A DNA stretch of 63,931 nucleotides, filler included, from Hausera hauseri (taxonomy: Eukaryota): NCBI GenBank assembly GCA_046269625.1. It is 12 parts of 12 records of this genome, joined end to end, with 100 filler letters (N's around TTAATTAATTAA, not from the genome) between each part and the next. Parts side by side here need not be neighbours in the genome. Positions count along the whole stretch, not along the records: positions 10,236 to 15,304 come from JBJURY010345713.1; 11 more parts are not named here. The stretch is one strand, 5' to 3'. A program made the translations under genes and the position numbers. Of this stretch, positions 868 through 23,082 are shown piece after piece. The notes under the pieces are model-generated. The model ran no database searches. It worked only from the letters and a program-made list of their open reading frames with translations, and was not told the DNA's origin. The first letter of the stretch is position 1, and each line of letters opens with the position of its first letter.

Positions 868-1172
868 CCCTTGTACAAGGCAAACAGTGCTGGAAATGAG
901 TTGAGCACGTAGCCCATAAATAGTTGATTATTTCTTATTATAGCCACCTCACAATCAGACGATTGTAAGTCGGTGAAAAACGTCGTTGAAAATTGAAACT
1001 CAGCATTGTAAAATGTGTTTAAATCTGGTTTTGCTTAGCCCTTGCACAAGTCAGACTGGGTTGTGCACGTAGCCCACCATTAGTTGAGCATTTCATATTA
1101 AGCCGCCTCACGATTAGACGATTGTAAGTTGGCGACGGGGGTTGCGGCGTTGAAAATCATCATTGTAAAAAG
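868..1172. repeat. Imperfect direct repeat, two units about 170 bp apart (868-1018, 1038-1172), downstream of the Polinton protease
   Basis: cccttg(t/c)acaag...gcacgtagccca...tagttga...cctcac(a/g)at(c/t)agacgattgtaagt...cgttgaaaat...cattgtaaaa occurs twice. Confidence 0.75.
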
Positions 1173-1335
1173 TCAAGTTTTCGGTTTTTGTTTAATACAA
1201 AACGAACGAACTAAAACCGATAATTGGTTATTAAACGGAATTTCACACACATATACACCAAAAGCATTAACCTAACAACAACAAAATAATATATTTCACA
1301 AAACAGAAATCATTTAGTCATTGTTGTTGTTGCTC

Positions 1336-1709
1336 TCATAAAAGTGTTTGTAGCCACAAATAATAGTAATCTCCACATAGTGGAGTCATTGGATACTGAT
1401 AATGAAATCGGTTATATTCAACATGAAGTGATGATTGCCGTTCAAATTGAGAAACTAGCGATGACGAATAATAAAATCCGAACGGATGGAATACTCTGAC
1501 AACGGTCGGATGGACGTACACAGCAATCCAATGTTCTCCCGGCAACAACGAAGTGTGTGTATTAACAATAAAACAGCCTCCACCAGTTTGTCGTAAATCA
1601 TGCGGCACACGGTCCAGTGGAAACACGCCACGAGATTTCGCGCCGACGCGCAGTTTTCCGCAGTGACTGAGCTAAGTAGAACTAAATGTGAAAAACGTGA
1701 TTTAAGCAT
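1336..1709 (-). pseudogene. Adenain-like (C5) cysteine maturation protease
   Basis: RGVFPLD..., FIVNT...PGEHWIAV (catalytic His), FHPFG (normally FD(S/P)FG), Q...LCG (oxyanion Gln, catalytic Cys). The ATG at 1709 is out of frame with the 1336-1626 ORF. Confidence 0.88.
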
Positions 1710-1778
1710 AATAATAATCAAAATAAATTACTTCATAATAAGACGACGACGACGACACAGCGGATTTTATGTATTTTT

Positions 1779-2936: not shown

Positions 2937-2947
2937 TTGACTGTCAA

Positions 2948-3310
2948 TCAACCAAAAATCATACGACGACGACGTCTGTTTATAGTTGAAAAGCTAGCTG
3001 ATCTACCAAGTTCACGTTTTCTCAAGCCACTCCCAGCGAATTGTTTTTTGACAGATTCAACGACTCCCGATGCATTGCTTTTTATTTCGGTCAAAGCGTG
3101 TTCCTTCAATGATGGTAAAATCGATTTGTTTTTATATAGTACATTCTGTGCTATTTTTTCTCCCACGGTTCCAATACGCTTCAACACTGGAAATGCTAAG
3201 CGCACCAATGTACGCAGCCATCCAGAAACATACTGTTTGCGGACGAAATACGACAGTTCACCGCTTTGTTGGGGATTACTGTAAATGGAAACGATTTCAG
3301 AATCAATCAT
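2948..3310 (-). CDS. Polinton PW-like basic core/DNA-packaging protein
   Basis: Lies between minor and major capsid genes. QxG/GSG protease-site-like motifs, amphipathic WLRTLVRLAFPVLK and an Arg-rich tail ending IFG. Confidence 0.8.
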   Translation of the reverse strand: MIDSEIVSIYSNPQQSGELSYFVRKQYVSGWLRTLVRLAFPVLKRIGTVGEKIAQNVLYKNKSILPSLKEHALTEIKSNASGVVESVKKQFAGSGLRKRELGRSASFSTINRRRRRMIFG

Positions 3311-3311
3311 T

Positions 3312-4199
3312 TTAGATTCGACGCATATAAAGAGTTAGACTGGTTATGGTACCGTACGGAAATTCAATAAGGTAACCCGCATCACATCGGATATTCATTT
3401 CAACATTGTTTATAGATGTAGATGCCACAGGTAGGTAAATTGGATTATCGAGCTTGACAGTGACATTGTCGCCAGTAGTGTACTTGCTGCTTTCCGGATA
3501 AATTGCAGGGAGTAGCAGTACACGTACTCCACCGACCAAAATTGGTTCGGTATCGTTCACGTAAATGTACATTTGACTTAGCCCAGTTTTCAGTTTGGGT
3601 TTAAGTGTTGCAACATGTACCGCCGCCGCCGTCGACGCCTCAAACCGCTGTTTTTCAAAACCCAATACCATGGCCAAAGCTTTGTCAAATGAAATATCCA
3701 CAATATCCTTAGACAGTTCAAATTTAATGTACCCATTTGCATCTGACTCGAAAACTTGAAATATTTCCTTGCATTTAAAGAAAAGTGTTGACAGAGATGT
3801 GCTACAGATTCGCAATAGACATTGTCTTCAATCGATACGTATGACGTTGACACCCTTTGGGCTGTATAGGTAAATTTCACCGTTGTCTGGTAATATACGG
3901 GACTTAATCAAAGAGCAACTGCATATTCACTTTTAATATCTTTACCTTGTACTCTGTATTGTGATTCCAAATTTCTGCGCCATATCAGAGTACCCAAAGG
4001 TGACAGTAAATTGAAAATCTGCCATAAAATGTAAGTTTTCTCCTAAAACAAAAACACTTATCTTGCCGTATAAACCGTAATTTGTACTGTTCGTGCAAAT
4101 GGCCGATTCTCCAACTGTTATTTTATTGTCAGTAAGTGTCAGAGGACAAGAATGTGTTTCTGTTTCAGTAACAGACTTGTTGTACTTTATTTTTTATTA
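3312..4199 (-). pseudogene. Polinton minor capsid (penton) paralogue 2
   Basis: C-terminal signature MYIYVNDTEPILVGG..LL...NPIYLPV..INNVEMNIRCDAG.LIEF..G...LTLYMRR. Frameshifted N-terminus (PLTL..NSWRIG) near 4100-4150. Confidence 0.8.
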
Positions 4200-5238
4200 T
4201 CAACAACGACGACGACGAAAATGTAGCATCAAATGTATCTTGGCTCTGAACAGAAATTTAATGGGTTTCCAAAATTCGTCTACTATATGCACGGAAATAC
4301 TGTGTACGACATTGTGAGACAACGATAAATACATGGGCCGGATGATATTTACATGAGCAGTTTGACCCGGTGTTATGTACGTTTCCGAATTCAGTCCAAT
4401 AGAAGCCAATAGTTGTTTACGATCTCCGCCAACATATACGGGTTCGGTTAGATCCGTTAAAATATTGAATCGATAAAATTCTTTGTAGAAACGTGGTTTG
4501 TGTTTAGAAATAATGGGCCGTCTGCCGCCGGTTTGACCGAATTCTCGTTTCTTAAAATCCAGATTCCATGCCAATATTTTACGAAAGGCAAAATATGTAA
4601 CATTATCATGTAGTGTAAACGAAATACGACCATCAGAGTTTAATTCAAATGTCTTGAGAGCCAATTTAGTTACAAATGTGATGGTTGCGCACAATTCTGT
4701 TTTTGTTTCCATAAGAAAACCATTTACATTTGTATGAGAGTAAAAGAATGATTCAGTCTTTTGCCAGTTCACTGTAATATCGGTAGTTTTCACGGCGTTT
4801 TTGGAAAATTTCAATATTTCACTAATTATACGATGTCCACCGAGCTGAAAACCCCATGCCTGAGCGTCGGCTAATGATTTAAATTGCAATTCAATCAGAT
4901 GTTTGTGTTTTAGCACCAATCTATTGTTTAAATGACAAATATAAACCGGGAAATATTGCCGCTTGTAAGTGCGAACGTGAAATGTTCCATTAGTCTCGGA
5001 CTAACTGCAAACGACTAGATTCAGGAGATTACCTTAGTAGAGTATAGCATATTCCATTGTTCTCACGTATTGTTATTGGTGAAAATGTAACTGTGAATTT
5101 CGTTAAGGCTACTTCCCAGGCTCCATGGCGTAAGTCGAGCGGCTGGTCCAACGTCATGATAAACCGTTTAGCGGTATTGTTGTTGTTGTTGTCATGTTCT
5201 AATAATATGTTACTATTAAGTACCAAATAAATGCTCAT
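4200..5238 (-). pseudogene. Polinton minor capsid (penton) paralogue 1
   Basis: N-terminus MSIYLVLNSN...NTAKRF..TLDQPLDL..AWEVALT (5029-5238). C-terminus NILTDLTEPVYVGG..QLL..PMYLSL...ISVHIVDE..PIKF...LMLHFRR (4200-4919). Disrupted between the two. Confidence 0.88.
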
Positions 5239-5585
5239 CACTCAATCTGCGATGCAAAAATTCAACTCGGTGTAATGTATCCGTGCCACTTGATTAGATA
5301 TTGTTTATTCGAACCTTTGACATGCGGACGTAGAATTTCCTGAATACGATATACATCGGGTTTCTGTGGCAGTACCTGCAGTTCCTGTTCGTAGAATTTA
5401 CCGCGTATTTCGTCACCGTTTTCATCCTCTAAAACGTACATGACAGGTGTTTGTTTTGTGTTGATTTCTGAAATGCGGAAAACCTCGTCGCTCCAGTTCT
5501 GAGTGAAATTCTTAATGAATGGTGTCGTACTTATTTTCGAAATACGTCCATAAGCAACGATTTTATATTTCGGGCGTTTAATTGC
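5238..5585 (-). pseudogene. Polinton retroviral-like integrase, C-terminal part with chromodomain
   Basis: Manual translation: PKYKI...RISK..PFIKNFTQNWSDEVFRI...TPVMYVLEDENGDEIRGKFYEQELQ...VYRIQEIL...QYLIKWHGY..PS*I. Not in the ORF track. Confidence 0.9.
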
Positions 5586-5685
5586 NNNNNNNNNNNNNNN
5601 NNNNNNNNNNNNNNNNNNNNNNNNNNNNNTTAATTAATTAANNNNNNNNNNNNNNNNNNNNNNNNNNNNNNNNNNNNNNNNNNNN
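5586..5685. other. Artificial contig linker (44 N + TTAATTAATTAA + 44 N). Identical linkers at 10136-10235, 15305-15404, 20772-20871, 24855-24954, 29078-29177, 39913-40012, 45595-45694, 49859-49958, 54197-54296, 59749-59848
   Basis: Exact 100-nt structure repeated 11 times. The 12-mer has stops in all six frames, and flanking sequences are unrelated. Confidence 0.98.
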
Positions 5686-5757
5686 CTTATTAAACCTATA
5701 TATAACATACAATCATTATTAAAACTAAATAACACAAACTAATAAACATTTATTCCA

Positions 5758-5992
5758 AACTAAATATTTTGTACATTAGCATTGATTCTACATGCTCTAC
5801 GCACTGTAAATCTCCCTCTCCGTTGTAAATGGAGAAATATAAACTAATTCTACCACACTGCGGACACTGAGTTTTGTTGTATCCACTGGCTTATGCACGG
5901 CAGGCAATATATGTGGGTACATCTGACTGGTCTGGCATGTGTAAAACGTATATTATCCTGACACAGAAGTCACACTGAAACAAACTGTACAT
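5758..5992 (-). pseudogene. RING-finger (C3HC4) gene relic, divergent from pPolB
   Basis: MYSLFQCDFC... / RPVRCTHIYCLPCISQWIQQ / TQCPQCGR...IYNGEG across two frameshifts. Resembles the RING at 47128-47598. Confidence 0.7.
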
Positions 5993-6220
5993 TGTTTAAT
6001 AATGCAACATATTGCAAATTTATATACTTTTAAATCCTGTAATTTTATTGGCTGAAATTTACTATTAATAAAGTATTATATTTTACAAAAGTGACAAATT
6101 ATTTCAAGTGAAAAAAATTGTATATTTTCTTTTTTTTTCTCTTTTTATGTCTTATTCTAGAATTGCCAATACAACTATTGCACCAGTCAAATAAACTCGC
6201 CGGACAATTGTGATGAAACA

Positions 6221-8900
6221 ATGGCCAAGTACTATGGCGTTCAATTGGACAAATAACAGTTTTTAATCTGCCTACAATGTGAGGTGATTTGTGGAGTACA
6301 ATTCCTAGAATTCAAGCATCGCCATCAAAATCACTTATCCTATTTCAAAAAATCAAAAAAGGTATTCTTAAAGGCCATATAAATATGATTAAAAGGCTAA
6401 ACAATTTGTTGCAGATCAGCAAGCAACAACATATATCTATCAAAAACCAACTACATCTACGAAAAAACAAGAAGTTAAACGGACAAAAAGCCGGATCACA
6501 ATGAAAATAAGAACCGTAAACTTGATGAACAGATAAAAAAGCCTGTACAGAAAATAAGACTCGATGTACAATCTGTTGTTGGTAATAATTATGTAAAGCT
6601 TTGTTTTGATGTTGCGCCTGACCAACTCATTTTTCTTAGATCACCCGAAGAAATTGTATTTATTTTACAGTTGTATGCTTCTCGATTTCCATCTTGTAAA
6701 ATTCAGTGCGGTCTTCAGATTCTATTTGAGAATACCGAAGGTGACTTTAAGGTGGCATATATTTCCCATAGAGCTGTACCATATGAGCAGTGTTATCCTG
6801 ATTTTGTAGCTGATAGTTTACGGGATAAAATTGAGAATTTTGCTGAAATGGGTAGTGGGTGAAAGGTGGTTAAAATATTGAAATACTCTTTTCATACAGT
6901 CAAAACTAGCCCACTACCCTACTTGTCTGGTAAGTCCTATATTCCAACTCCTGGAGCTTTAAAAAATGCTGCGGCTGTTTTAAACGTACAAAACGAGGAA
7001 ACTTTGTGTTTATTATATTCTATCCTGGCAGTGACCAAATATTCTCTCTTTGATTATCATAGGAATAGAGTAAGCAATTACATTCCTTATTTAAGTGAGC
7101 TGAAATATTCTGTGGATGACATGCCAATGAAAATATGCAATATAGGTAAATTTGAGAGGCAGAATCCACACTTGTCAATTAATGTTTTTCTGTTTCACGA
7201 TGAGGAAGATGTGGATTTTGATGAGGAGATAGTAAAAAATCCATTCGTCGATATTTTGTACCGCAGCAAAACTCCGAATGGTACTGTTGTTAACTTGCTG
7301 ATTCTGGAGAATGATGATCACTTTCCCTATGTTGCCGTACCCAATCTTAATAGACTGTTGAATATTAACAATAAGAAAATCCGTATTCAATGTAAACATT
7401 GGTGTGAAAAATGTTTACATAGGTTTAGGTATGATACGGGATATTTTAAGCATTTGCCTATGTGCAATTCGTCTGCCAAGTGCATGTCATTGCACAAAAT
7501 GCCCGAAAATAAGTTTTGAGTTTAAGGACGGGGCCAAATCTATAAGTCTGCCTTTCGTAGTATATGCTGACTTTGAATCTGTTCTATGTCCTGACGATAA
7601 AGTCAGGCATATTTGCCTGCTGCAGCCGGTCTCTTGTTAGTTTCACCAACAAGTATTGGATATAGGCAATGTGTAGGTGAAAATTCCATAGTTGAGTTTC
7701 TGGCCTGTTTAGCGGAAATTATTAAAAGATTATTTTTCCCATGGTATGGAAATGCGAAAAAACAGATGATCCCGGTAACACCTGCTGAATGGTTTCAGTT
7801 TATAAACGCCACAACATTTTACTTATGCCATGTAAGGGGCACTACATCTGTTATGGGTCACTGCCATGTTACAGGTAAATACTTAGGCCCAGTTTGTAAT
7901 CAGTGTAACTTGGCTCGTACGATTAGGGATAATTTACTTCATATTTTTTATAATTTGCGTGTATATGATCTTCATCATCTGAAAAGACGCATTAAGTCGG
8001 AAGTTGGGAATTAAGCGTGATTCCGCAAACAACTGAAAAGTTTCTAACAATGCAGGCAATGATTCTCTGCTCAGCAAAAAAGTCTGTATCTATTCGATTT
8101 CTCGACTAGTTGCAGTTTCTACCAGCTTCACTGAAGACTTTGGCTTTTAACTTATATAGTTACACATTTACTGAGTCGGCTTTTCATTCTGATATTAAGG
8201 GAAAAGGTATTTTTCCATATACTGCAGCCAAATCTTTCAGTGATTTGCAGTCTATTAAGGAGTTGCCACCGAAATGGGATGGAGTTAGTGATACCGATTA
8301 TGAGGAAGTTCAAATGACTTGGGTGAAATACAGTTGTAGCTGTCTTTTAGATTATATGTTGGTATACACGAAGCTCGACGTATACTTGTTAGGTGATGTT
8401 TTTGAACGGTTTAGAAAAGAGGTTAAGATGCAGGATGGTTTAGAAGCCGTAAATTTCCGGGTTTATCTTCGAAAACTGCACTGAAAACGAGCCAGTGTCA
8501 CGTTGAACTTATTCAAGACCCTGAGATGTATAATTTCTTTCAGTCGGGTATTCTCGGTGGCATGACTTTTGTAACTAAGCATAGGGTTGTGTCTGATGAA
8601 AGCACTAGTCTATTGTATATAGATGTAAATAATTTGTACTGCTGGGCTTTATCGCAACCACTGCCATTTGCGAATTTAGTATGAATATATGATGAGAATA
8701 AGTTAAACAGTCTAATTGAAAATTGCCCCATATTGACTGTGTTAGGGAAAAACGAGGCTTAGTCTTTGAAATCGACTTAAGCATTCCGGGTGACAAACAT
8801 GATAAGTTGGACTAATTGCTTTTAGCTCTAATTAATAAATGTCCTCCTGGTTCAAAAATTAAGAAATTGCTGCTTACACATGAGCGTAAGTCCAACTATG
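6221..8900 (+). pseudogene. Polinton protein-primed DNA polymerase B, lineage A (N-terminus to mid-polymerase domain)
   Basis: MAKYYG.., GSG*K, GKSYIPTP..LNVQN, VVYADFES (Exo I), endonuclease-VII-like GHCHVTGKYLGPVCNQCN, YNLRVYD, KGIFPY, YTKLDVYLL.DVFE.FR, YIDVNNLY, ending KLLLTHERKSNY. Many stops and frameshifts. Confidence 0.92.
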
Positions 8901-9418
8901 AGGTGCTGCGCCTAGATCCCTGAATAGATATGGTTCACTGTCCAGTCCTTTGCCATATATGCAATATGATGAGAGTTCATGATATTGGTATGCCGTTGTG
9001 CTGCTGTGCTGGGGATTAGGACTGCAACTCTGAACGGGACGCGGAATAGCCTCAAAGTCGCAATAGATAACTATTGGGACCTTGAGTTTCTTCTTGAACT
9101 CCTTGAATTCAATGTAGTCCTCATTGGGGAAATCTGGCCTGATACAATAATTGTTGCTGCAGTACATCTTGTGCTCTTTCAGCTTTAATACAGCTACATC
9201 GCCGCTGAAATTGGACATGCATAGTTTACATATTTCTATTTGTCCATGATGTTTCGTAATTTGTGACCTGACTAGCCGCTCAGTGTTTGATCCAAACATA
9301 ATGTTTCTTTTCTCCATCGTCTAGTAGCAGATCCCTATGGTCTTGCAATTCAGTGTCACATCTTTAGGGGATAGAATTTGTTCTCATCCAATCCCAAGAT
9401 ATTGATTCATATATTGTT
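8898..9418 (-). pseudogene. Inverted fragment of lineage B pPolB
   Basis: ERLVRSQITKHHGQIEICK..KVPIVIYCDFEA..SEPYLFR; closely similar to the 43670-44200 and 62700-63240 copies. Confidence 0.9.
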
Positions 9419-9619
9419 GTCAACATGTTGCATTTGTATTGCCAACATGCTGCATTTGTACATTTGTTTTAATGCATCAATTTCATGAACTTACCACGTA
9501 ATTTGATTGATTTAAGCAAAAACTTGCTCACATACGCACATGAATCCGTCATTATGCTACTTGTATTGTTATCGTATTGCATATGTATTATCAACGTGTT
9601 GCATTTGTCNNNNNNNNNN

Positions 9620-10060
9620 ATTTTCGAGTATTAAATTATTAGAATATTCGACTTGTTAACCGATATTCGAACTTTTGACGTCATAATCAGACTCCCCATT
9701 CATGATTTTCTATCTACCTACTCTTAAAGATTTGTCGATTTTTACACCCCTTGTCTTGAAAATCAAGTTAATTAAACCACACACATGTGAATTTTTCAAT
9801 GTTAGTTTACTCGGTAAGGATTCATCGAACGTGGTCCACTTTATTTTTATCCAAGGTTTTCACAGATGTAGAAGCGATTAAAACCATCAGATTCTTCGAA
9901 TATTGCGTGACTGATCGATTATTCGAGTTCTAATCGATAATTATTCGATTTTGAATAATGTATTCGAATATCTAACACCAGAATCGGATTTTCCACATAT
10001 GCTTTCCTATCTGTGTGCGCTTAAAGATTTATCGATTGTTGCACCCTTCTCTTTCAATTT
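9620..10060. repeat. TCGA/TTCGAA-rich dispersed repeat with internal duplication; homologous in inverted orientation to about 40880-41045
   Basis: The reverse complement of 9885-9930 (gaactcgaataatcgatcagtcacgcaatattcgaagaatctgatg) matches 40996-41041. cttaaagattt(g/a)tcgatt occurs at about 9723 and 10020. Confidence 0.65.
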
Positions 10061-10654
10061 CACCTTTTAAGATTACCCAATTAATTAACAAATAAGCACC
10101 GTTGAAGTACATAATATGTATTACACAATATTTACNNNNNNNNNNNNNNNNNNNNNNNNNNNNNNNNNNNNNNNNNNNNTTAATTAATTAANNNNNNNNN
10201 NNNNNNNNNNNNNNNNNNNNNNNNNNNNNNNNNNNCCGTTCCGTTCGGCTAGTCATCGGCCGAACCTTACGGAACCGTTGTCCGTTGGTTCATAACGCTT
10301 CCGCCGTCGTCAGAAACCATATGCCGATCCTCCGCCACTTTTTCCCCATCCCACCACGGGGCTTCCTTTCATCTGACGGACTTCGCACCTTTACCGCTCA
10401 ATGCACTATGCCCGCCCCATCATTTCTATGTGCCACACATGACCGTACACCATTTCTTTCTAACATACGCTTTTTCTCGTGCACTTTCCCTACTTCCGGG
10501 GTGCACCGTGCACCGTTCACCGTGCGTTTTTCGAAATCCTCTTCACCGAATCTACCAAGCCAGTACCTTTCTGCGCATCAGTCACGCTTTGTTCTGCTAC
10601 GGGAGGGGTACCCCGGGGGGTGGCGCGGGATCTGCATTTTTCCCCTACTTTCCA

Positions 10655-11853
10655 AACATGTCCGATTTGATTACAATAATAGCAAAATCTATTTTCATTC
10701 ATCATACTTACCTGAGTTGGATAGTTTCGAGCTACATGTCATCATTGTGCACAGATATTGCACTGCTTATGTTGTTGAATATAAGGTGGCATTAATACCG
10801 GCATTCTTTTAATTTTTGGACAAGGCTTAGTAATATGTCCAAATTTCTTACATTGGTTACACTAAATTGATCTTTTATAATTGACTTAATCTCTTTCTAA
10901 CACCACTACTTGTTGCTGCGTAGTCTGTGATCGAAGAGGATATCGTTTTTCCTCTTCTGGAGGGTTGATCCATTGTGTTCTATTCAGATTTGCTCCAGTA
11001 GCCATGTCTTTAATAGGGGTACCCATTCTTTGTGATTGCAAATTTGCCCTTATAGGTGATTTTACAGTATTTGGGTAAATAGTGGGAAACAAATTTTGAT
11101 TAACATTCTGGTTAGTGCCAACATTCCAACGAAGCGGATCCCAACGCGGTATCGAAGGAACTTGCCAACCGGCCTGTCCATATGATCACGAAGGAGTTCG
11201 CCAAGCCTGGATATACCGCCTAAAATTTTGATTTAAATCTTGAGGTCTAAAGTTACTGCTTGAAATTTGATTGCTATTAATTGAATTTTTATTAATTTGA
11301 TTTAATTTGTTCTCTACGTTTTCAAAATTTATTGCTTTTCATATTAGCTCATTTAAAGTAGAAACATCACTTTTAATTAGCTGTCTTTAGAGTTTAGGGC
11401 CATTAAGTCCAGTGATAAAACAATCTATTGAAATAGGCTCCAATGCGAAAATCTTAGGTGCACCTTTATCATCTTTGGCAGTATCTTCCTTCTCCAATGC
11501 TTCCTTGTATCGTTTACCAAGTAGTTAAAGAGCGAAAGCAAATTTATTAACAAATTCTCCTGGTAGTTGGACTCTAGACCGTAGACTTCTTAGTTTTGCA
11601 TTTGAAGATGGATCGGGATACATGTTTCTTCTAAGTACATCAACAAATTTATCCCAATTCATTTTCTCCTTTTTCTCAATTTGCAAGTAAGCTTGTAAAG
11701 CAGTTCCCGCCAAATGTGCAACTAAACGTTTAATTTTCTCCTTATCATTTTATTCTAATCCGTCTGCCGGCTCTGCGTATACTAACATAAAATCATCAAA
11801 TTCCGTGGTTTCCCGGAATAGCGTCCTAAGTTTAGGTTTGCAAATGTGGACAT
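10655..11853 (-). pseudogene. gag: Gypsy/Metaviridae-type LTR retrotransposon gag with three CCHC zinc knuckles
   Basis: Capsid: RYSG..EFDDFM...E*NDKEKIKRLVAHLAGTALQAY, LRSRVQLPGEFVNKF, DCFITGL..STLNELI. Knuckles: CNQCKKFGHITKPC, CNICAQ**HVARNY, CYYCNQIGHV (truncated). Confidence 0.88.
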
Positions 11854-12008
11854 TCTTTGTACTTGCGAATATATAAACTCTTCTGTAGGGGTGATAACAC
11901 TATGCTCAGTAACTTTTCTTATAGTGCTTTCGTTTACAATTACTTTTTCGTTGAATGACCTCTTCAACTTACTAGCCAGACCCGAAAATTTTCAAATTCG
12001 ACAATCGG

Positions 12009-12026
12009 GTCCTAGCGTGGTCGCCA
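12009..12026 (-). promoter_or_regulatory. Primer-binding site, tRNA-Arg type (TGGCGACCACGCTAGGAC)
   Basis: Begins TGG about 170 nt upstream of the gag ATG. Its complement GTCCTAGCGTGGTCGCCA resembles 3' ends of eukaryotic tRNA-Arg(TCG) plus CCA. Confidence 0.75.
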
Positions 12027-12691
12027 AATTTATGTTTGTTTCTAAGGTTATGGTAAACAGTACAACCTCCAAAGTCTAAATTAATTTATACAGCTAATTT
12101 AGTCTTTTCCCACACGTATTCTACCTTTTTCTTTTTTTAATATTCAAATAGGCCCACTTATCGAAAGGCAAACAAATGATTTTATCAATCAATTCAAAAA
12201 AATATTTTACAACCAACGGAACAATTGTGGCAATTTACCGAATCGTCCACGTATTACTCGGTACAATCAGACGATTTTGTCAGGCAGACGATTTTAGGGT
12301 CAAATAGTGCCTTTAGATATCAAAAAAATATATTACAATTAAGATCAAAATAAAAGGAAACAAATAATTATACCCACTGGTATTTCAAGTCAAACTTCAC
12401 TAGTGATTCCTTTTCTTATTTCTTGGATGATCACCACAACACTTGGTTATAATCGAATCGTGAAGAAATTGACGAAAACAACCATCAAACTTGAAACTGT
12501 TATAGAATCTATTTATTTATTTTACCAACACATGTATATATATACATATCTCATGCGGAAGAAAAATTAAAATCAATTACTGCAGCTATTATGCTCCTAA
12601 ACAATGTGATGCTATTTATCTAAAAATAATTACAAAAATAATTGCGACAGCTGCACAGTTTCCTGCCGCAATTACAATGCTGTCTTCAACA
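12027..12691 (-). repeat. Candidate LTR
   Basis: Non-coding stretch directly 5' of the PBS. Contains TATATA (about 12540) and AATAAA (about 12515) on the minus strand, with a possible TG start at 12691. No second copy in the window, so the boundary is uncertain. Confidence 0.4.
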
Positions 12692-12749
12692 TAAGGAGGG
12701 GCTTAAGATGGTATTTTCCACTAACGTCAGTAAAAAAATAACGGAGAGT

Positions 12750-15304
12750 CTAAAGTAATGGAATCTGTCCATGTGTACAAATCATCAGCAATTGGTATTT
12801 GATTGGATTGCTTTGCTATTGAAGCTTCATGGTAAAACTGGCTCAAATGTAAGGTAGCCATTTGAGGACTATCAGCATCTTTTAGGACACGTGGGGTATA
12901 AAAGGAAAAATCTCATGATGGATGTTCTAAGAAGGAAAGATCTGACCAGGAACAGTGGGGTATTGATGATGACAATTTATTTGAACATTTCGATATTACG
13001 TTAAGTATAAATTTAGAATGCCATGGTGGTAAGAGCCAGTTAAAATGGTATCTTTCTTTATAAATATCATATGCAATAAATACCATGTATTCGGCGTTCA
13101 TTTTGCCTGAAATATAATATTCATTAGTTTGAAATATGGATAAGAAAGATTTGAAGCCATGCTGGCTAAAATTAAGATCCATTTGGCCCAATAAGTGTAG
13201 AGGATAAGTGTAAAAGGTTGAGAAGGTACTGTGGATCGAAGGTTACTATTACCCTGCCAAATATGGCGCGTTGGATATGGGCCCTGCATAACGCAAAATC
13301 CAGTGAACCTTCCAAATCGTCCAATGCGATTCAGTGATAATGTTTATCAATGTTATCTATTTTCTCTCTTGGTCTTACATATGATTTGTATCTTATTGTT
13401 AATTGTTCATCAGGATCATTAGTAAGGTCGTCTAAATATATTTGAATAAGCAACGGCAAATTTCCTGAATAAGCTAAGGTATAGCCTACAAAAAGTAAGT
13501 TGCGAATTGAATAAGGATTAGGAGTGCGGATATAAGAACGTAATGCTTGAGTTGGAGGTTGTGGGAGCCAATCTAATTCCTTAAAGGATAGTTTTCCATT
13601 AGGTGATGTATGACAATATTGATACTAGAACTGAGTATTTACATATTCAAGTTCGAAATACAGAATGGATGTTTCCCTAGTTAAGATAGTCAATAATTCT
13701 GAATCCCAAATATATTCTGTTATCAAAAGTGATCTTTGAGACAATGCATAGAGCATAAATTTAGGGAATGGTGGTTTAAAAATTTCAGAGGTTGTGACGG
13801 AAATTTTGTAATGGCGAACAATTGCTCAGTAATTTGTTTTAAGTAGATGGGTCCATAACTATGGGACCAGTAAGAAATTAAAATGCGTCGATCATGTAAA
13901 CTATAGCTTTTATACTTATTTGGGATTGTAAATACAGAAGGATGTTTGGTGATTCTATAACGGAGTGTTCTATCCATACGCAGCGATCTATATACAGCGC
14001 GTGAATGTAGTACTTCATAGAGAAAAGGTATATGTGCGCTTGTAGGTAGGTAAATAAGTAGGCGGGGCATGTATTCTAAACTTGCAAATTGCAGGCTTTG
14101 TGCCATATTTCGAATTAATGGTGAATAAGTTAAAAAATGTTGTGATTGGGGGTAAGATTGAGAGGAAAGTAAGAGGAGGTGTAGGGGTGGGTGAAAATTA
14201 TTCGATAAACGCTCAATAGATGCTGATTCTGTTTCTATACCAATAGTGGAACACAGGTTCAATGATTGCTGTGGACACTGCATTTTCTTGGGGGTTATAG
14301 TAGATTTTGTCGGAGAAACTGATCGACCACTGGGATTTGTAGATGCCACTAAAAATAAAAGTGGTTATTATAAATACATGCCCGCACCTGAGAATAATAG
14401 GTCGTGGAAAATCTCAATTGTCATAAGACACTACTGTAAATATCATCATTTCGTCTGCCGGCAATTTCGTCGGGCGCGAAATAGTTTAACTTAAGGTTAA
14501 TATTATACGATGGTATGTTTTCATATTCATTAAGATATTGCGCATAGAATGTCTCGCTCGATTTTTTAAAATACACGGCGAGGGAAAAACATACTATGAT
14601 TAATATGTCTGAAATGATAATTACGACCACTTATATATAGAAGGGAGGCAATGAGTTTTGTTTAAATTTTACAAATGCACTAGTTGTTCAGGACGGTATA
14701 CGAGAGAAGAAATAAAAATCAAATTTTTGTTTCCAATTTGAAAAATTTTTAAAGAATAGTATGGGCTTATCCAAAAGCGTAGAAGTAACGAAACGTGTTG
14801 CATTGCGTCTGTGTTTTACTAGATTTAATAAAGATTGATTAGGTGTATTTTTAATTGTTGTAGTTTGGAGATTATGTTTCCTAAAAATAATTTGGCAGTT
14901 TAACGTAGTAACGCTTGGTTTTATGTGTGGTGATAACTTAGATGAGAATAAATGCTTTAAATTTAGTGTAGTATTAATTAGGATTCGATGTGAGGGATAT
15001 ACGAAAACTGCAAATTGAATTCGACATACTGAGGGTCGAAAATGAATATCTTCCTTTTTTACTACTATAAGCTGAGGCGAAGAAGGTCCAACAGACACCA
15101 ATCAATGTTTCCCTACATATGTGGCTTCCAACACTGGGGGGTTCCACCGTGTATGTAAATCGTCAATTGAAGAATAATGGATTGCTTTCCACAAAAATGA
15201 TCCTGATGTATAAAAAGATTGAACAAGGGGAATTAACCAATCATGTATGAAATATATATTTGTCTCAGATATCGGAATAGTAACTCGAATCCATGTTGGC
15301 TTAT
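12750..15304 (-). pseudogene. Decayed env-position membrane polyprotein of a retroelement (ectodomain - TM - Tyr tail - internal signal - ectodomain)
   Basis: Intronless ORF fragments 14688-15101, 14421-14630 (TM VVIIISDILIIVCFSLAVYF + KK, tail with YENI and IYSSV), hydrophobic PRPIILRCGHVFIITTFIF near 14350-14410, S/T-rich start of 13723-14349, then 13098-13289 and 12913-13191. Confidence 0.45.
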
Positions 15305-15841
15305 NNNNNNNNNNNNNNNNNNNNNNNNNNNNNNNNNNNNNNNNNNNNTTAATTAATTAANNNNNNNNNNNNNNNNNNNNNNNNNNNNNNNNNNNNNNNN
15401 NNNNCAGACTGAATGTACACAATTACATTAATTGGTCAGAGAGTTTCAGTATTGTGCCACTGATAATCAATGAAATTGTGCTAACTTGTGCTAACACATT
15501 CTAACCGTTATTAGAGACATTCATCCCTGTGCAACCAATGATGACATTGTCGATGTTAATTTTCATATTGTTTGTCATACTACTGTGGAATATTACGCTA
15601 TATCACAGCATAATTTTCGTTTAAAATGTAATCGTTAGATGACAATTTTACTTACGTTGGACACTAATTTAAACTAATGTGAATATTTTTATTTATTTCA
15701 GTATGGAGAATTTATACCGATCTTGATAATGAATGTTTAAAGCCATTTCATCATTTACTAAATAATTATTCATTGGTGTTCGGAGCCATGGAAGGACAAT
15801 ATGCCGGCAATAAACAAGGAAAAAGTAAATTATTGCTTCAG

Positions 15842-16004
15842 TGATTTAAAAAGGGGATTTGCATTTGTCGAATACAATGATCATAAATCAGCAGCGATTG
15901 TCATGAAGAAAATGATTGGTAATGGTATCCAATTGTGGGGTCATACGGTTGCTGTTGATTGGGCGGAACCAGAACGAAAGGTTTATGAGGAAATTATGTC
16001 GAAA
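15842..16004 (+). pseudogene. Isolated exon encoding part of RRM2 of an RBM47/A1CF/hnRNP-R-Q family protein
   Basis: RGFAFVEYNDHKSAA...IQLWGHTVAVDWAEPE...EEIMSK, bounded by cag| and |gtcagt. No other exons recognised. Confidence 0.75.
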
Positions 16005-16104
16005 GTCAGTTTCTTTTTCATATTTATATTACGTAGTTTATATGCAGTAGATTCACTATTGGATTTTTACTGGAGTAAATGAAACATTGCTTCATTTTAG
16101 CTCA

Positions 16105-16631: not shown

Positions 16632-16786
16632 GTTTTAACAAATTTTACAAAAGAAATGTTCAACAACTTTCTCATATTATTAATCATCATTATATTTTGT
16701 ATGTGTCTCTGATTATTTGTTATAAAAATGACCCATATTTACAGTAAAATCCCTCATTTATGGTACTTGTACAATATTCCCCACCT
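16632..16786 (-). repeat. Dispersed repeat, inverted copy of 39660-39912
   Basis: aatgacccatatttacagtaaaatccctcatttatggtacttgtacaatattccccacct is nearly the exact reverse complement of 39792-39851. Confidence 0.9.
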
Positions 16787-17880
16787 GCATGAGAAAATAT
16801 TGATGAATTAGCATAAGACATATTAATAGAACCCAATAAGCAGATCATCAGTGTGATCAGTAACGAGAACGGCTAATCATAACGATGCAGTATCATTTAC
16901 TGAATATTTTACTTTTCATTTTACATTAAGTATCGTTTTACTATTTTGCTATTTTCTCTCACTGTTCTCTCATCTTTCATACCAGTACCGGTTATAAACT
17001 TGCATAATTAATATGTCTCTATTTACTAGACTTACTATTTGTTGTCTAGTGACTCTCAGTCTGGATTTATAAATTATAAAATGATGGGTAGTGAAGTGAA
17101 TAAGTGCCTTATAGACTTAAATAATAAAAATTTATGAAATGTTCATGTACCATACTCATTTACATTTAATATTAATAATCACAACAAATTCAAGTGTCCA
17201 ATCCAAATGAAATTTCATGTTTATATTCATTCTTGTATTTCAGCCATATTGGAATGGGAACTTTTGAAGATGTTATCTTAAAAACTAATGACGATGACTT
17301 TCGTGGCCATTTAATTCGTTCGTTCATCGATTTGCACAAATGTAACTAATTGAGAACAGCCACCATTTTGTTATCATCAATTTCATGTAATCAAATTTTG
17401 TTGTGAAATAAAAAATTAGCCATTCAGTAACTTTCAGACCGCCTTGTACATACGAACAAAAAATGTTTCAAATATGCCAATCATAAAATATCAATAAATT
17501 GTATAATTGATTTTTACTTATCGAAAATATTCAATTAGATATGCAGAATTGTTAACAATTTTCGTTGAATTTTTATGATGCAAATTAAAATAATTCCATT
17601 GGATAATTTTAGTATGACAAAGACATTTCGTAGATATAAGTAAGTAGATTGGTATTTGTCTCTGTTAGTTTTAGTTCTACATTAAATGTGTTTGTTGTTG
17701 TTCTTATTACTTAATATGATCAGACGTTTCGTTGTGTTTGGCTGAAGATGTATCAGATTGTTGGCCACACAGATCTCGACCAGACCAAAATAAGATTTGA
17801 CTTCATCTGCTAATCATGTGCTGATCTACTAGAATGATTAATAGTAGTCATGGCGAATATTGATTTGTTGTATTTTGTAG

Positions 17881-18637
17881 GTGTGAAAAAGGTGCAATTG
17901 GCATTCAATTTCTGTGACTACTATGGTCAGTACGTGTGCGACAACGGTAAATGTGTACCAGATGGATATAATTATAGATGTGACTGCAACAAGGATTTCG
18001 TAGCCAGTAGTGATGGCAAATCATGTAAACGTAAGTCATAAGATAACATCCATGACCAGTTATGATCAAGTGTAACAGGACAAGTGGATTATTGCAGTCT
18101 GTATCAGAATATGTTGTGTCAGAATGGAAAATGTATCAATACGGCCAGTGATTATGAGTGTCAATGTGATAGGGGGTATTCTACATCATTTAACAAAAAG
18201 AAATGTACAAGTAATTTGCATAGAACTGTCGATGATGTAATCATTCGAGTATTGTGCAGGTATTTGTGATTTGTATTCAATGAGTCTCTGTCCAAATGGC
18301 CGCTGTGTACCACAACCATCAGGGGAGTATAGATGTGAATGTAACAGTGGCTATGCATCATTTGATAAAGGAAAGGATTGCCGTCGAATAATGAACGACG
18401 AATCAGGTAATTACAAGCTGTGTAATTTGATTATTATTTGTTGTGGAGTTGCAGAAGGGACAGTCAAGAAGTCAGGCAACACAAAGACACTGAATCATGG
18501 AACGGACTTTTGCTCGTACTCGTATTACAACAAACAATGCCAGGGGGGTGAATGCATAAATACAGGGGACAATTATAAATGTGAATGTTTACCGGGATTC
18601 CAGAATGACAAGAATGGACAGGCATGTATCAAATCAG
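17881..18637 (+). CDS. Host EGF-repeat (fibrillin/fibulin-like) protein, four exons: 17881-18030, 18079-18210, 18260-18406, 18455-18637; other exons not resolved
   Basis: One 6-Cys EGF-like module per exon (C..NGKC...Y.C.C..G.....C). GT-AG phase-1 introns of 48, 49 and 48 nt. Confidence 0.85.
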
Positions 18638-19427
18638 GTGGGTTATTTACTAACTAATGTGGATAAAAAACTGCATTCGAATACTATTGGAATATTTACT
18701 CATTATCAAATAGAAAATGTTTTATAATATATGATTGAATAAAATGTCACACAGGTGCAACAATTCTCATTGACTAGTTATGCAGCATTACAACATATAA
18801 AACACGGTTTGTGTGGCCACTGGCATCCATTTTGTGAAATGACGAATACATTCCATTCAGTAACTGCACTGAGGACGGATGATGCGGCATTATTGCGCTA
18901 ATTGATGAAATATTATAGCTAATATTGATTTTCTTGTTTAATTGTATTATTTAATTTCAAATATCAAATCAATTCGCAATGTAAATAATTAGATGTAAAT
19001 ATTTTACAACATTTTACAGATAACTCATGGCCATTTCAAAATTGTGTTACTCTTGTCATAACAAATGGAAACAACATTCTGACTGTCCAATGTTTGTCTA
19101 TAAATGGAAATGTTTATTTTGTGAAATGGTGGCTCATTCACTGGACTTGTTTTATTCAGTGAAAGTTTTCAATTGGTACTAAATATGACACAATATGTGA
19201 TTATAGAGTCATCTAGAAAGACGAGGATCTCATTATTATCCAATGAAATGACCTGAATATTGGAATATTTATAAAAATATGACAGAAAATGGCGACCAGT
19301 CATTTCAAATCCACTTTTGTATAACAAATAATAAAATATTTCACATAAATTCGTAAAAGTAATGTAATAAACAAATCAGATGTTTAACCGAATTTTCTTA
19401 GGTGTCAACATCAAAATAAATAATCGC

Positions 19428-19474: not shown

Positions 19475-21601
19475 ACTAAATGTCATCATCATCAATAAAC
19501 AAACTATCCGGCATTATCGTTCATATTTATTTTCTAGTAGCGTTATTTAACAGTTCTATTTTATATTTGTGTTTATCCGACTAATACATTCATAAATAAA
19601 TAAATTTTATCCGGATTAGTCTGGATTATGATGAACTATTTTCATTACTATTCGGTCATTTTTAAATATGACTTATTTGCACAAATCAATCATTTCACAA
19701 GGTCATTCAGTGATTTAAATGACATTACTCCAATAGATGATGACAATATTGATTATGACGTCAGATATATAATCCGCCATATTGCGCAACCAATACTATA
19801 AATCCATTTTTATTACAAATCGATTATTTTTATCAATCTATTATTCAAAATGTATAATTTCAATAACACCAACATCAAACTCATCACCTATTATAATGCT
19901 ACAGTAGTCATAAAGGGAGTAGACATTTATGCGGTATTCTATGCACCGAGAACATTTAAAAAGGGATGAAATTAGTTGACTATTCCATGAGAGTTGTTTA
20001 TGAGAATTTCAATACATTTTATAAGCATAAAACACACTCAGAATTTGTATCAGTTGTGTCGGCGATCTGAATACTGATATTGATGGTAATGAGGAGCATG
20101 ACATGGAACCCTTCATTTTTGACCAGGCATTTTCTCAAAGCGCTCCAATATTTATTAATTGAAAAGTTATATATTAACTAGATGAATGATGGACACAACC
20201 TCCTTGTACGAATGTTCCTCACCAGTAATGTCCTAATGTTTGACTTCCCTTTTCATCAGATGGTGGCCATATGGAATAATTTGAGTAGATTGCATTATCT
20301 GTTCTATCAAACATTTGAGACATACGCCGCAAATGCTATTCATTTACAACAAAATACAAATGTTGAATTTTTCTGGCCACAAGTCATAAATTAATCGATG
20401 ATAAGTAAGGTTATTAACGTGATAACGTTCACCTTGATTGCAAATATACTGCAACAATGTCACTATATTTAGTTGCATTTATCTCTACCATCAATCAATA
20501 ATTTTGGTGAGTGCAATTTGTATAATTATCATTGCTGTTCTTATTATTTCTGGTCATTCTTGTTTATCACGTACCTTTGTGTGTTTTTGACTATCTAGGT
20601 ACGATTTACGACTAATTCCTTGTTGAATCACATTTATGATCGATAAATCAATATTTATAGGCAGTAGTTTGTAAATATACAAATTTCAAATTACATATAG
20701 CCAAAACAACATTGGTCTATCAATATGTCCTTATTTCATTGGTTCTTGTTAGGATTTCAGGTATGCATACANNNNNNNNNNNNNNNNNNNNNNNNNNNNN
20801 NNNNNNNNNNNNNNNTTAATTAATTAANNNNNNNNNNNNNNNNNNNNNNNNNNNNNNNNNNNNNNNNNNNNATTTTGGATGACAATAAAAATTTTCTACA
20901 ACTGGTGTTTACTTTTCAATGAGTAATTTCAAACGATCCCATTCTGATTCAGTAGATATACCAGAGGGCGGATGTTTTCCAACCCTACCCAAGCTGGGTG
21001 ATGACGTGGACGGCGTGGATGCACACGTTGCCAACACTTGCAGAAATAGATATTGATTTGTAGTTTAGCGCAAATCGTTCCGGTCGACGCGTGTGATAAG
21101 TGGTAGTGATTCCTGGTGCAAATATTTCTGATGCGGAAGTTCAATCGGATGATGACACAGACTATATTGCAGCTGGGAACGATAAATGTCCACTTGATGA
21201 ATCGGATGTCGGTACGGATGATGACGATGTACCATTAGTCAATTATGTTCGTAGCAGCACAGATTCTGATTACGAAGTTCCTTTAGACAGGCTGATTCAA
21301 TCTGAAAGTCGATTATCCAACCAAAGAAACAAAAATGATCACAGTTTTCGTTGGCGTGCCATGAGTCAGCCAGTTATTGATACAGCTTGGAATGATGTAC
21401 TACCTTCTGGTTCAAATGAAACAGATATTCCAATTAATTACTTCGAGCAATTCTTGACAAATGATATGAAGCAGTTGATAGTCACCGAAACAAATGCTTA
21501 TGCTGTTCAAAATAGTTCAAGTTTTAGAACTGTGTAAACTGTGGAGAAATATATCGGATTCTTACTGCGAATGTGTATAGTACACGTACCTTGCTATAGA
21601 C

Positions 21602-23082
21602 CAATGATGGGCAAACAACGACCCGCGAGCCAACTCCGGACCGGGGAAAGGTTCAATGCGGCCCGCCGCATATTTTGTAATAATAATTAAAAATAGCAAT
21701 GACACTCAGTGTTAAAATAATAGGTTTTAATACGAGTTGAAAAGGTGGAGTAATATTGCGAATTTTGATTTATATATGATACGTTACTAATTGCGTCATC
21801 TGACTTGAAACTTTCGCAAGCGCAGTAAACACAGTTTGCATGCATACGATCGTTAAAGGGACCAACAAGAGGGTCATAAATTTTTCGAAGGTCTATCAAT
21901 TTTGAACGTACCTACATCAAGAATGGAGCGACAGAAGGAGCTCCAAGTATCATAGGGATGTCTGGATTTGTTGGGATTTTTAATCAAAATTACCCCGAGA
22001 ACAATGTTGTTTTTCTACATTGCATCATACATTAATACATCTTATGAAAAAAAGCATTGAATATAAAACCTGTCCTCGATGTAATTGTAAAGCTTGTAAA
22101 TACTATTCGATCCCGTGGGCTTACTCACAGACAATTTCAAGAGTTCCTTAATTCCATGCAATCTGAATACACCGATGTACTGTACAACACGAAAGTAAGA
22201 TGGCTTAGTACAGGACGCGTCTTCGAGCGAGTTTGGCAACTAAAAGACGAAATAGTATCTTTCTTCCATGAGAAAAAATTGTCTGCGGAATGTGAAATTT
22301 TAGAAGATTCAGCATGGCTCTCGGATTTTGCATTTTTCACAGATCTAATCTGTCACATGAACAAATTAGATATTAAGATACCAGGAAAAAATCAATTTAT
22401 TGACGATATCTGAGGGTCACCTTAAAGGTTTCAAACAACAACTTGTTCTATTTGCCAATCAGCTAGCTAAAAAGGACTTGTCTCATTTCACGAGGCTAAA
22501 TTCACTGACTGTTGTGAAGGATGATATGCTTAGGAATAATGAAGATAACTTGAAGAAATTTCATGGCGAATTTGAAAAAATTTTAAGACTTCAGGGCCTT
22601 TTAATGTGGACTGTGAAGTAGTGAAACCAGACCTGCAGATTGAATTAACTGAACTCCAATCTAATAATCATCTCAAACAATTATTTATAAATGTTCCAAA
22701 ATTAGAGTTCTACAAAGGCTTGTCGAAATCCACTTTTCCAAATTTAATATCTCATGCTCAGAGAATTTGTTCAATGTTTGCATCTTCATATATTGGTGAG
22801 CAGCTTTTTTCAATAAGAAAAATTAGAAAAAGCTGTGTAAGAAATAGATTGACAGATGAACACTTCAGTTCACTCTTAAGAATAACTACGTCCCTATTTG
22901 AACCAGATTATGATGAACTATTATCAAAACTCTCGCAGCTTCATACATCGCATTAGTTTAATTTTGTTATAATAAAAAAGTCTTGCTCACTTACCATATT
23001 TTTTAATAAAAAATTATTATGGCCCGTCAAAATTTTTTCTTTTAGTTTTTGGACCGCTCCTAAAAAAGTTTGCCTATCAATG
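21602..23082 (+). mobile_element. hAT (Buster/SPIN/Charlie-like) element, internally deleted, 1481 bp
   Basis: 15-bp TIRs caatgatgggcaaac / gtttgcctatcaatg. 8-bp TSD CTATAGAC at 21594-21601 and 23083-23090 with central TA. Confidence 0.95.
21926..22956 (+). pseudogene. hAT transposase, C-terminal portion (GTF2IRD2/SPIN-like)
   Basis: TEGAPS (TDGA), LHCIIH, RGLTHRQFQEFL, VRWLS, FASSYIGEQLFS, RNRLTDEH. Frameshifted. Confidence 0.92.

Follow-up and report, generated by a model that had tools for sequence, protein, structure and literature searches.

What do two membrane-protein ORFs do directly upstream of the PBS and gag of a retrotransposon? This question is raised by one 5.07-kb contig (JBJURY010345713.1, 10236-15304) from the genome of the animal Hausera hauseri (GCA_046269625.1). 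The contig is part of the window, that is, the whole stretch of 63,931 nt analysed here, which consists of 12 separate animal contigs and 11 artificial linkers; all positions refer to the window. An initial annotation had read the region as a membrane-protein polyprotein at the 3′ end of one retroelement that shares an LTR with the next.

Arrangement of the contig

On the minus strand, ORF-A, ORF-B, about 600 nt of non-coding sequence, a PBS, a gag and an insert follow one another (Table 1). The ectodomain, TM, YENI/IYSSV tail, hydrophobic signal, S/T stalk, second ectodomain, non-coding stretch, PBS and gag named in the initial annotation were each located. Its anatomy is thereby confirmed, but the region is not one continuous reading frame, and the TM of ORF-B had been overlooked.

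The coding signal of ORF-A and ORF-B on the minus strand is above chance: the cheapest reading path from 15304 to 12622 costs 16, compared with 36.1 ± 3.8 in Markov-resampled controls, none of which (0 of 200) was as low. An antisense ORF suggested by a skew switch was rejected, as the plus-strand frames are closed across both ORFs. The stop at 14423 terminates ORF-A, and 11 more stops, three of them in ORF-A (15104, 14690 and 14633) and eight in ORF-B, are found together with three frame changes. Because ORF-A is closed by an in-frame stop before ORF-B begins in this copy, the proposed single polyprotein is unproven. RNA structure near the ORF-A stop shows nothing special (z = 0.29).

Both are decayed type-I membrane ORFs. 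The ORF-A ectodomain is Cys-poor, and its cytoplasmic tail of 48 aa contains six Tyr and two YxxPhi motifs (YENI and YSSV) and ends with SSVL before the stop; the YxxPhi and class-I PDZ-type assignments follow the usual motif definitions. Strict ITIM or ITAM motifs are absent from all tails examined. The ORF-B ectodomain has six Cys and one sequon. FN3-like motifs seen by eye in ORF-B found no support, since Pfam fn3 gave no match, and nor did a short ORF-A/ORF-B similarity, also seen by eye (z = 1.3, 33 of 300 shuffles).

Table 1. Features of the contig and its adjoining linkers, in window positions
Feature	Position	Strand	Remarks
Artificial contig linker, N44-TTAATTAATTAA-N44	15305-15404		Not biology
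ORF-A, 3′ part	14421-15302	-	293 codons; 5′ end removed by contig end
ORF-A TM	14630-14574	-	Mean hydropathy 3.0
YENI motif, ORF-A tail	14525-14514	-
IYSSV motif, ORF-A tail	14441-14427	-
ORF-B	12622-14403	-	~590 codons; frame pieces about 14403-13790, 13774-13195, 13190-12622
ORF-B signal-like hydrophobic segment	~14400-14345	-	Broken by stops 14370 and 14367
ORF-B S/T stalk	14343-14284	-	Short; 20 aa, S/T = 9/20
ORF-B C-terminal TM	12678-12622	-	Hydropathy 2.8
Non-coding stretch with putative 3′ UTR and (shared) LTR	12027-12621	-	LTR limits are candidates
Candidate polypurine tract	12124-12138	-	15-nt pure purine run, sole such run in the non-coding stretch
Candidate short LTR	12033-12114	-	82 nt, TGT...ACA, internal TATAAA
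PBS, tRNA-Arg(UCG/UCU)	12010-12026	-	11/12 bases vs Arg_UCG_UCU 3′ ends (PMC13524379 supplement 1)
Decayed Ty3/gypsy-type gag	10650-11853	-	Capsid region and knuckles; 9 stops and, near 11810, one frame change
GC-rich (55%) high-copy element	10236-10649		Inside third zinc knuckle; extends to contig end
Second artificial linker of the same kind	10136-10235		Not biology

Candidate LTR, gag and related copies

No coding signal was detected on the minus strand between 12621 and 12027 (103 of 200 controls were equally low). The minus strand of the entire window contains 11 purine runs like the candidate polypurine tract, which gives a chance of ~10% that one falls within 600 nt, and the candidate tract sits 10 nt ahead of the TG of the candidate LTR; both points weigh against a shared LTR with cargo upstream. 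Upstream of the 82-nt candidate, 15 of 18 nucleotides are purines, the highest proportion among the TG starts listed. Candidates of up to ~600 nt stand beside it, and no second LTR copy was found within the window. The PBS is unique within the window and lies ~160 nt upstream of the gag ATG; scans with its pattern returned either nothing or fortuitous matches in GC-rich DNA of prokaryotes or phages.

The gag matches Pfam Ty3_capsid (E = 6e-4, 19.7 bits) and Retrotrans_gag (E = 6.6e-4, 20.3 bits), in both cases, as a decayed copy, below the curated cut-offs (29.1 and 24.1, respectively). Its three CX2CX4HX4C-type knuckles, at residues 325, 358 and 384 of the protein (P0007), are intact, degenerate and cut by the insert, respectively. 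In X1, a public run that contains 0.49 of the sampled words and probably derives from another individual or a relative, the insert reaches depths of 10,000-47,000, and nine contigs continue with different letters at 10650. The insert end at 10650 might be a Polinton-type terminus, a reading that the literature consulted did not confirm.

Contigs of X1 cover all 30 of 30 bins of the locus (4029 records, mostly 80-95% identity), and none spans the whole stretch. Many diverged copies of both ORF-A and ORF-B are found among them, so the locus is not the single-copy host flank that the initial annotation had regarded as fatal to its reading. Two contigs match ORF-B at about 84-87% identity; one has 732 nt and a depth of 54, the other 318 nt and a depth of 57.5. 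This depth of 54-57 compares with 3-7 for the shallowest contigs listed. At position 12596, the best of 10 contigs has 87 nt to its end, which suffices to reach from the ORF-B TM into the non-coding stretch. Among the sites listed, the median per-site depth is 65 in ORF-B (n = 23), 72 in the non-coding stretch (n = 5), 293 in ORF-A (n = 4) and 1150 in gag (n = 9), where summed contig depth does not equal copy number. The non-coding depth is thus close to that of ORF-B, and just upstream of the PBS (12054-12071) it is 58-72; the LTR-side DNA tracks ORF-B. The ~18-fold greater depth of gag suggests that most gag-like copies lack a recognisable ORF-B, which counts against the ORFs being cargo.

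Several lesions of this copy are not present in the X1 contigs that cover them. The 40 differences listed (with 717 further) include 37 coding sites, five of which are located in stop codons (expected 1.6%, P = 3e-4); in the membrane ORFs alone, three of 29 listed sites are in stop codons (P = 0.006). The X1 contigs also vary in length at the three frame changes of ORF-B.

Origin of the membrane ORFs

We favor, with a probability of about 0.55, the reading that the contig holds the 3′ end of an LTR retrotransposon that carries cargo and shares one LTR with the next element. It would then be an old and decayed junction at which Ty3/gypsy-type LTR retrotransposons of an animal genome lie in tandem. 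The 3′ end of the upstream element would carry two intron-free type-I membrane genes at the usual position of env-like cargo, followed by the purine tract and the one shared LTR, and then by the PBS and gag of a downstream element of the same or a related family. ORF-A and ORF-B would lie, as we infer, inside an LTR pair. The order of 3′ cargo, polypurine tract, LTR, PBS and gag on one strand argues for this reading, as do the absence of intron-sized gaps over 2.7 kb of ORF-A/B and the similar stop density in the membrane ORFs (11/880) and gag (9/394, P = 0.22). The shared LTR proposed at first is consistent with the common strand, the similar decay and the purine tract before TG..CA. On the other side, neither pol nor a second LTR nor a target-site duplication was found within the contig, which ends inside the insert at 10236, and gag differs from ORF-A/B in base composition at four-fold sites (P = 0.0045), which fits different histories. 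Between the two arrangements originally offered, tandem insertion and collapsed assembly, the shared-LTR tandem fits; a straightforward collapsed consensus is improbable, given that this copy has lesions which the X1 contigs covering them lack.

It is unlikely, although the composition difference is in its favor, that the gag element (5′ LTR-PBS-gag) is nested in or beside another mobile element, such as a Polinton/adintovirus-like one, that carries ORF-A/B. Polinton-like DNA abounds in this genome, where other contigs match pPolB at E = 5e-6 and adenain at E = 0.0065, the contig studied already shows nesting at 10650, and the silent-site composition of ORF-A/B is closer to that of the ORFs at 54-60 kb (P = 0.051). 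However, Polinton genes are absent from this contig, the depth just upstream of the PBS is ORF-B-like and not gag-like, and nesting is further disfavored by the purine tract, the same-strand order and the similar decay.

Less likely still, ORF-A/B could be multi-copy, intron-free host surface receptors or variable antigens (or retrocopies), downstream of which a retrotransposon landed by chance. Their receptor-like topology and Tyr-rich tail are reminiscent of host adhesion or immune receptors; in addition, an unrelated tandem pair elsewhere in the window (P0001 and P0008, mutual E = 3e-29) has frames that look intact, and long single-frame ORFs of host-like character (2466 aa) occur in the genome. 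Yet Pfam, PDB and Atlas gave no match to any receptor family, the decay of ORF-A/B matches that of the adjoining gag, and the depth of 54-57 in collapsed, near-identical contigs points to a young mobile subfamily. An assembly chimera, i.e., a short-read join of two copies via a shared LTR that would make the tandem unreal and could leave the cargo standing, is improbable: the contigs are short and both contig ends break in high-copy DNA, but an 82-nt LTR is below typical read size, and the contig center is the most diverged, low-depth part with private lesions, unlike a collapsed consensus.

If ORF-A/B do lie inside such elements, they would add to the known retrotransposon uses of the cell surface and constitute a new, concrete protein family; as host or DNA-element genes, they would be an orphan multi-copy membrane-gene family beside an ordinary decayed retrotransposon.

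Comparison with known systems

In PMC13524379, a recent survey of 1,512 env-carrying invertebrate Ty3/gypsy elements, only F-type and gB-type envelopes are described; known env baits were used, so membrane cargo unrelated to them would escape it. According to its supplement 1, several annelid elements with env, and one from a collembolan, have a tRNA-Arg(UCG/UCU) PBS. Our locus shares with such elements this PBS and an ORF for a membrane glycoprotein at what is presumed to be the 3′ end, but it has two tandem type-I ORFs instead of one env, without Pfam match. Its gag has CCHC knuckles, unlike insect errantiviral gags as described in PMC2577118. The ENV-GAG-POL type of oribatid mites (PMC13524379) was rejected, since env there lies ahead of gag and downstream of the PBS, whereas here the PBS lies between ORF-B and gag.

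In line with the remark in the initial annotation that no fusogen motif is recognisable, no hallmark of F, gB or FAST proteins was seen in the sequences of ORF-A/B analysed here. ORF-B has no R-x-[KR]-R, no ectodomain hydrophobic segment >1.5 and no Pfam or PDB match, and the F-type hallmarks are absent from the 3′ part of ORF-A that was examined (the 5′ part is missing). As for gB, which is defined by a class III fold of five domains and by conserved cysteine bridges, ORF-B has just its six ectodomain Cys and no Pfam match, and the model of the ORF-A ectodomain has a pLDDT of 33. The locus would resemble MDG1-group elements in their env-independent membrane cargo (sORF2/FAST-like; bioRxiv 10.1101/2025.03.14.642691), and the Mdg1 lineage has a tRNA-Arg PBS (PMC3286476). 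A FAST-like fusogen was rejected, however: sORF2 is 60-210 aa with a myristoylated ectodomain of 10-50 aa, and ORF-A/B are far larger.

Animal LTR elements are known to carry ORF3 cargo other than env (PMC5408684). Like bdelloid Vesta, Juno and TelKA, which have extra family-specific 3′ ORFs, some with TM and without known homolog, the locus would carry cargo of its own, but the TM ORF3s of those elements are 210-230 aa (PMC5408684), whereas ORF-A, with at least 293 aa and a Tyr-rich tail, and ORF-B, with ~590 aa, have large ectodomains. LTR elements that stand in tandem with a single LTR between them, including two-family hybrids, are common according to reports on Tf1/Tf2 (PMC11042837) and rice (PMC11899658). 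Our contig would likewise show the inside of an element, one LTR, a PBS and gag along a single strand; unlike in those tandems, the outer LTRs and pol lie beyond the contig, and the tandem is deduced. Among open papers and bioRxiv main texts, no match was found for two-membrane-ORF elements of this kind.

No relatives were found for ORF-A, gag or the first piece of ORF-B in a protein database, nor in IMG/VR, JGI metagenomes, GTDB, Atlas, PHROGs or Rfam, and PDB sequences gave no homolog (best E = 0.16). Among 1.84 billion representatives, P0008 had one match, P0010, which was rejected as a spurious low-complexity repeat. These blank searches do not show novelty, since the collections probably lack the host, given that even gag was unmatched. 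Single-sequence AlphaFold models were unusable (pLDDT 39.6 for P0008 and 33.1 for the ORF-A ectodomain); a fold search with the P0008 model gave helix matches and one Ig-like beta-galactosidase domain (Z = 5.2), and BFVD gave nothing at E < 0.001.

Should ORF-A/B be cargo, their most likely role, at less than even odds, would be that of two separate surface proteins for attachment or adhesion rather than classical fusogens, as their topology would suggest, with few sequons and a fold that is not assignable. ORF-A might be sorted to cell contacts via its YxxPhi motifs and class-I PDZ-type C-terminus, and might there help capsids pass between cells; a receptor-mimic role and neutral captured genes are the alternatives. 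More doubtful is the proposal that a two-gene cassette at the Ty3/gypsy env position, with large Cys-poor type-I proteins and a Tyr/PDZ-type tail, unlike F, gB and FAST, represents a new envelope substitute (for cell-contact transfer) or a retrotransposed receptor mimic, of which the 54-58 kb pair would be a second cassette.

The initial annotation had likened the locus to 54297-59748 and regarded such arrays as retroelement cargo. The likeness survives in topology: the pair at 54297-58153 (P0001 and P0008) also runs from a signal through ectodomain, TM and tail to one in-frame stop, after which a second signal, ectodomain and TM follow, with one Tyr-rich tail. It does not extend to homology, as ORF-A/B and the 54-60 kb ORFs share no blastp match, shuffle z ≤0.4 and hhalign probability ≤0.2%, values of low power given single decayed sequences and a two-row profile. 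The extension to cargo is not upheld, as the 54-60 kb region lies on another contig, where PBS, gag and pol were not detected. It is worth noting that the Tyr-rich tail belongs to the second protein of the 54-58 kb pair and to the first (ORF-A) here, and that P0001 and P0008 have 13 Cys each and 10 and 5 sequons, more than ORF-A/B.

Anatomy of two membrane ORFs ahead of a PBS and gag

The contig at 10236-15304 (5,069 nt) holds a real and multi-copy feature, a decayed retrotransposon junction behind two orphan membrane genes, ORF-A and ORF-B. The minus-strand order given in the initial annotation (ectodomain, TM, Tyr-motif tail, signal, stalk, second ectodomain, non-coding stretch, PBS and gag) was recovered with each part located, and is extended by a C-terminal TM in ORF-B. 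The coding signal of both ORFs is real. The lowest path cost (stops plus frame changes) along 15304-12622 is 16 on the minus strand, compared with 36.1 ± 3.8 in 200 controls (0/200 as low), and 41 on the plus strand. In ORF-B, two stops break the signal-like segment, the S/T stalk is 20 aa long (S/T 9/20), and the ectodomain has 6 Cys and 1 sequon. The ORF-A tail, in which no strict ITIM or ITAM was found, ends in SSVL, which we take to be a class-I PDZ-type ending.

The description of the region as a polyprotein is unproven; in this copy a stop ends ORF-A. This stop and the PDZ-type residues before it favour two separate proteins. The contig at 54-60 kb likewise has one in-frame stop between tail and next signal, and the pattern of tail, stop and signal could reflect a broken polyprotein as well as a bicistronic cassette.

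Between the ORF-B end and the PBS lie some 600 nt of non-coding DNA. The PBS is unique within the window and stands ahead of gag, as had been claimed. On the plus strand of 11854-12621, the stop-and-shift cost is somewhat low, at 7 versus 13.6 ± 2.3 for minus-strand-derived controls, but this strand shows no clean ORF. Gag contains three CCHC-type arrays, the third cut at 10650, past which nine contigs of X1, a public sequencing run, carry other letters. The insert (10236-10649), sitting in this third zinc knuckle, is CpG-rich and very high-copy (55% GC, X1 depth 10,000-47,000), and its end, a putative Polinton-type terminus, begins AGTAG like Polinton termini. The element downstream of the PBS behaves as, and probably is, a Ty3/gypsy retrotransposon (PMC2577118 is a source for zinc-knuckle counts per lineage).

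Features of the contig at 10236-15304
Feature	Position	Strand	Remarks
ORF-A	contig end to stop at 14423	minus	293 codons, 3 internal stops
ORF-A TM	14630-14574	minus	
ORF-A tail			48 aa, six Tyr, two YxxPhi (YENI, YSSV), C-terminus SSVL
ORF-B	starts ~20 codons or less past ORF-A	minus	three frame pieces
ORF-B C-terminal TM	12678-12622	minus	absent from the initial annotation
PBS	12026-12010	minus	11/12 bases match tRNA-Arg(UCG/UCU) ends as given in PMC13524379, supplement 1
gag	start 11853	minus	Pfam Ty3_capsid, Retrotrans_gag, E about 6e-4, below cut-off

Copy number and decay in X1

X1 contains 0.49 of the sampled words, and 4,029 of its contigs at 80% identity cover 30 of 30 bins. Per site, the median depth is 1150 in gag (9 sites), 762 in the leader (2 sites), 72 in the non-coding stretch (5 sites), 65 in ORF-B (23 sites) and 293 in ORF-A (4 sites), with 3-7 for the lowest-depth contigs among those listed; because summed depth is not copy number, these values are orders of magnitude only. 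Two contigs over ORF-B, of 732 nt (depth 54) and 318 nt (depth 57.5) at about 84-87% identity, suggest a collapsed young subfamily. Among the 40 of 757 difference rows listed, the window differs from every X1 contig; the stop that ends ORF-A is not in these rows. Stop codons of the contig copy account for 5 of the 37 listed coding rows (P = 3e-4); 29 of these rows lie in the membrane ORFs, where stop codons account for 3 (P = 0.006), and length differences occur at all three ORF-B frame-change sites. Stop density is alike in the membrane ORFs (11/880) and gag (9/394; P = 0.22). The depths and lesion differences thus place ORF-A and ORF-B in a repeated family, with several lesions private to this old copy. 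A single-copy host flank, the case that had been named as refuting, is not what X1 reveals, both ORFs being multi-copy.

Relation to an LTR element and possible function

ORF-A and ORF-B are likely retroelement cargo, and we assign a probability of about 0.55 to their lying at the 3′ end of an LTR element that shares one LTR with the next. Strand and order match cargo, PPT, LTR, PBS and gag. The sole 15-nt purine run in the non-coding stretch (12138-12124) is followed by a TGT...ACA stretch of 82 nt ending 6 nt before the PBS. X1 depth directly upstream of the PBS (58-72) is ORF-B-like, not gag-like, and 10 X1 contigs at 12596 are long enough (best 87 nt) to link the ORF-B end with the non-coding DNA. 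Shared-LTR tandems, including two-family hybrids, are common according to PMC11042837 and PMC11899658. Against this reading, pol, a second LTR and a target-site duplication are absent from the contig, no X1 contig spans it, and such a purine run is expected by chance at about 10% (11 on the minus strand in 63 kb). The candidate LTR is also shorter than those of Culex Mag elements (119-304 nt in PMC3286476).

The silent-site composition of ORF-A and ORF-B is unlike that of gag (P = 0.0045), and gag depth is about 18 times that of ORF-B, both also counting against the shared-LTR arrangement. It is unlikely that the ORFs sit in another mobile element with the gag element nested beside it. A host gene family, here a multi-copy one, is somewhat less probable, and an assembly chimera is the least probable.

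Beyond the topology, repetition and decay directly shown, we infer that the LTR element would have a pair of large surface proteins, each crossing the membrane once, expressed from the 3′ end. The YxxPhi motifs and PDZ-type tail of ORF-A could direct sorting to endocytic or junctional membranes, and both proteins might act in attachment or adhesion during cell-to-cell capsid transfer, a tentative best guess given cargo status; receptor mimicry and neutral captured genes are alternatives. Neither a furin motif nor an internal fusion-peptide-like segment was found in ORF-B, and its Cys are few, so its sequence makes a classical F or gB fusogen unlikely. The reported lack of a recognisable fusogen motif applies to ORF-B, ORF-A being incomplete and less testable. 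Structure models of the ORF-A ectodomain and of P0008, an ORF at 54-60 kb, are of low confidence (pLDDT 33-40).

No homologs of ORF-A or ORF-B were found in any sequence collection searched; gag likewise lacks matches there, so these blanks say little. F-type and gB-type env (PMC13524379), sORF2/FAST (bioRxiv 10.1101/2025.03.14.642691) and the short bdelloid TM ORF3s (PMC5408684) are all unlike this cargo. An element with two such membrane ORFs was not found in the literature, subscription papers and bioRxiv supplements lying outside the search, and a new env-substitute cassette is doubtful.

The 54-60 kb ORFs and the remaining contigs

The window is not a single locus: 12 contigs of 4-11 kb each are joined by 11 identical linkers (N44-TTAATTAATTAA-N44), and 54297-59748 belongs to a different contig. 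Its paralogous type-I membrane ORFs P0001 and P0008 (54297-58153, minus strand; E = 3e-29 and shuffle z 24.7 for the pair) have one in-frame stop between them. They are predicted to be beta-rich at low confidence; P0001 has a ~205-aa N-terminal part ahead of the internal signal, and P0008 a tail of 69+ aa with 7 Tyr. No credible homolog was found in 1.84 billion representatives. The claim that 54297-59748 mirrors ORF-A and ORF-B is borne out in topology, with no homology detected (no blastp E below 1.2, no shuffle z above 0.4, hhalign probability 0.2% or less in 3/4 pieces tested). This contig has no copy of the tRNA-Arg PBS and no gag or pol match, and the likeness is topological only, so the extension of retroelement cargo to these ORFs was not sustained. 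Directly upstream of P0001, a 463-codon frame with 2 stops (58360-59748, minus strand), having no Pfam match and no significant PHROG match, may reveal the element type of this contig.

The remaining contigs carry Polinton-type pPolB, adenain, piggyBac-type transposase, EGF exons and RRM exons, a content that indicates an animal source. Polinton/adintovirus-like pieces lie on 6 of the 12 contigs (1-10135, 24955-25690, 40013-49858 and 59849-63931) and comprise pPolB with an endonuclease VII-like domain, adenain and a RING protein, as well as capsid-like pieces that, like some of the PolB ones, were identified only by eye or through DNA similarity. Such DNA seems unusually abundant in the host genome. 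Host exons at 15762-16079 and 18241-18657 (plus strand) encode a divergent RRM, presumably hnRNP Q/A1CF-like, and EGF-domain repeats. A piggyBac-type transposase piece and, by eye, hAT-like pieces are present at 20872-24854. An uninterrupted 2466-aa ORF (31864-39267, minus strand), S/T/K/E-rich and without a Pfam match, has internal repeats of 162-174 nt near 34400-34830. A repeat of ~120-170 nt (94-98% identity) on two contigs (16633-16790 and 39659-39912), in tandem on one, is probably a small transposon or a satellite, of recent origin.
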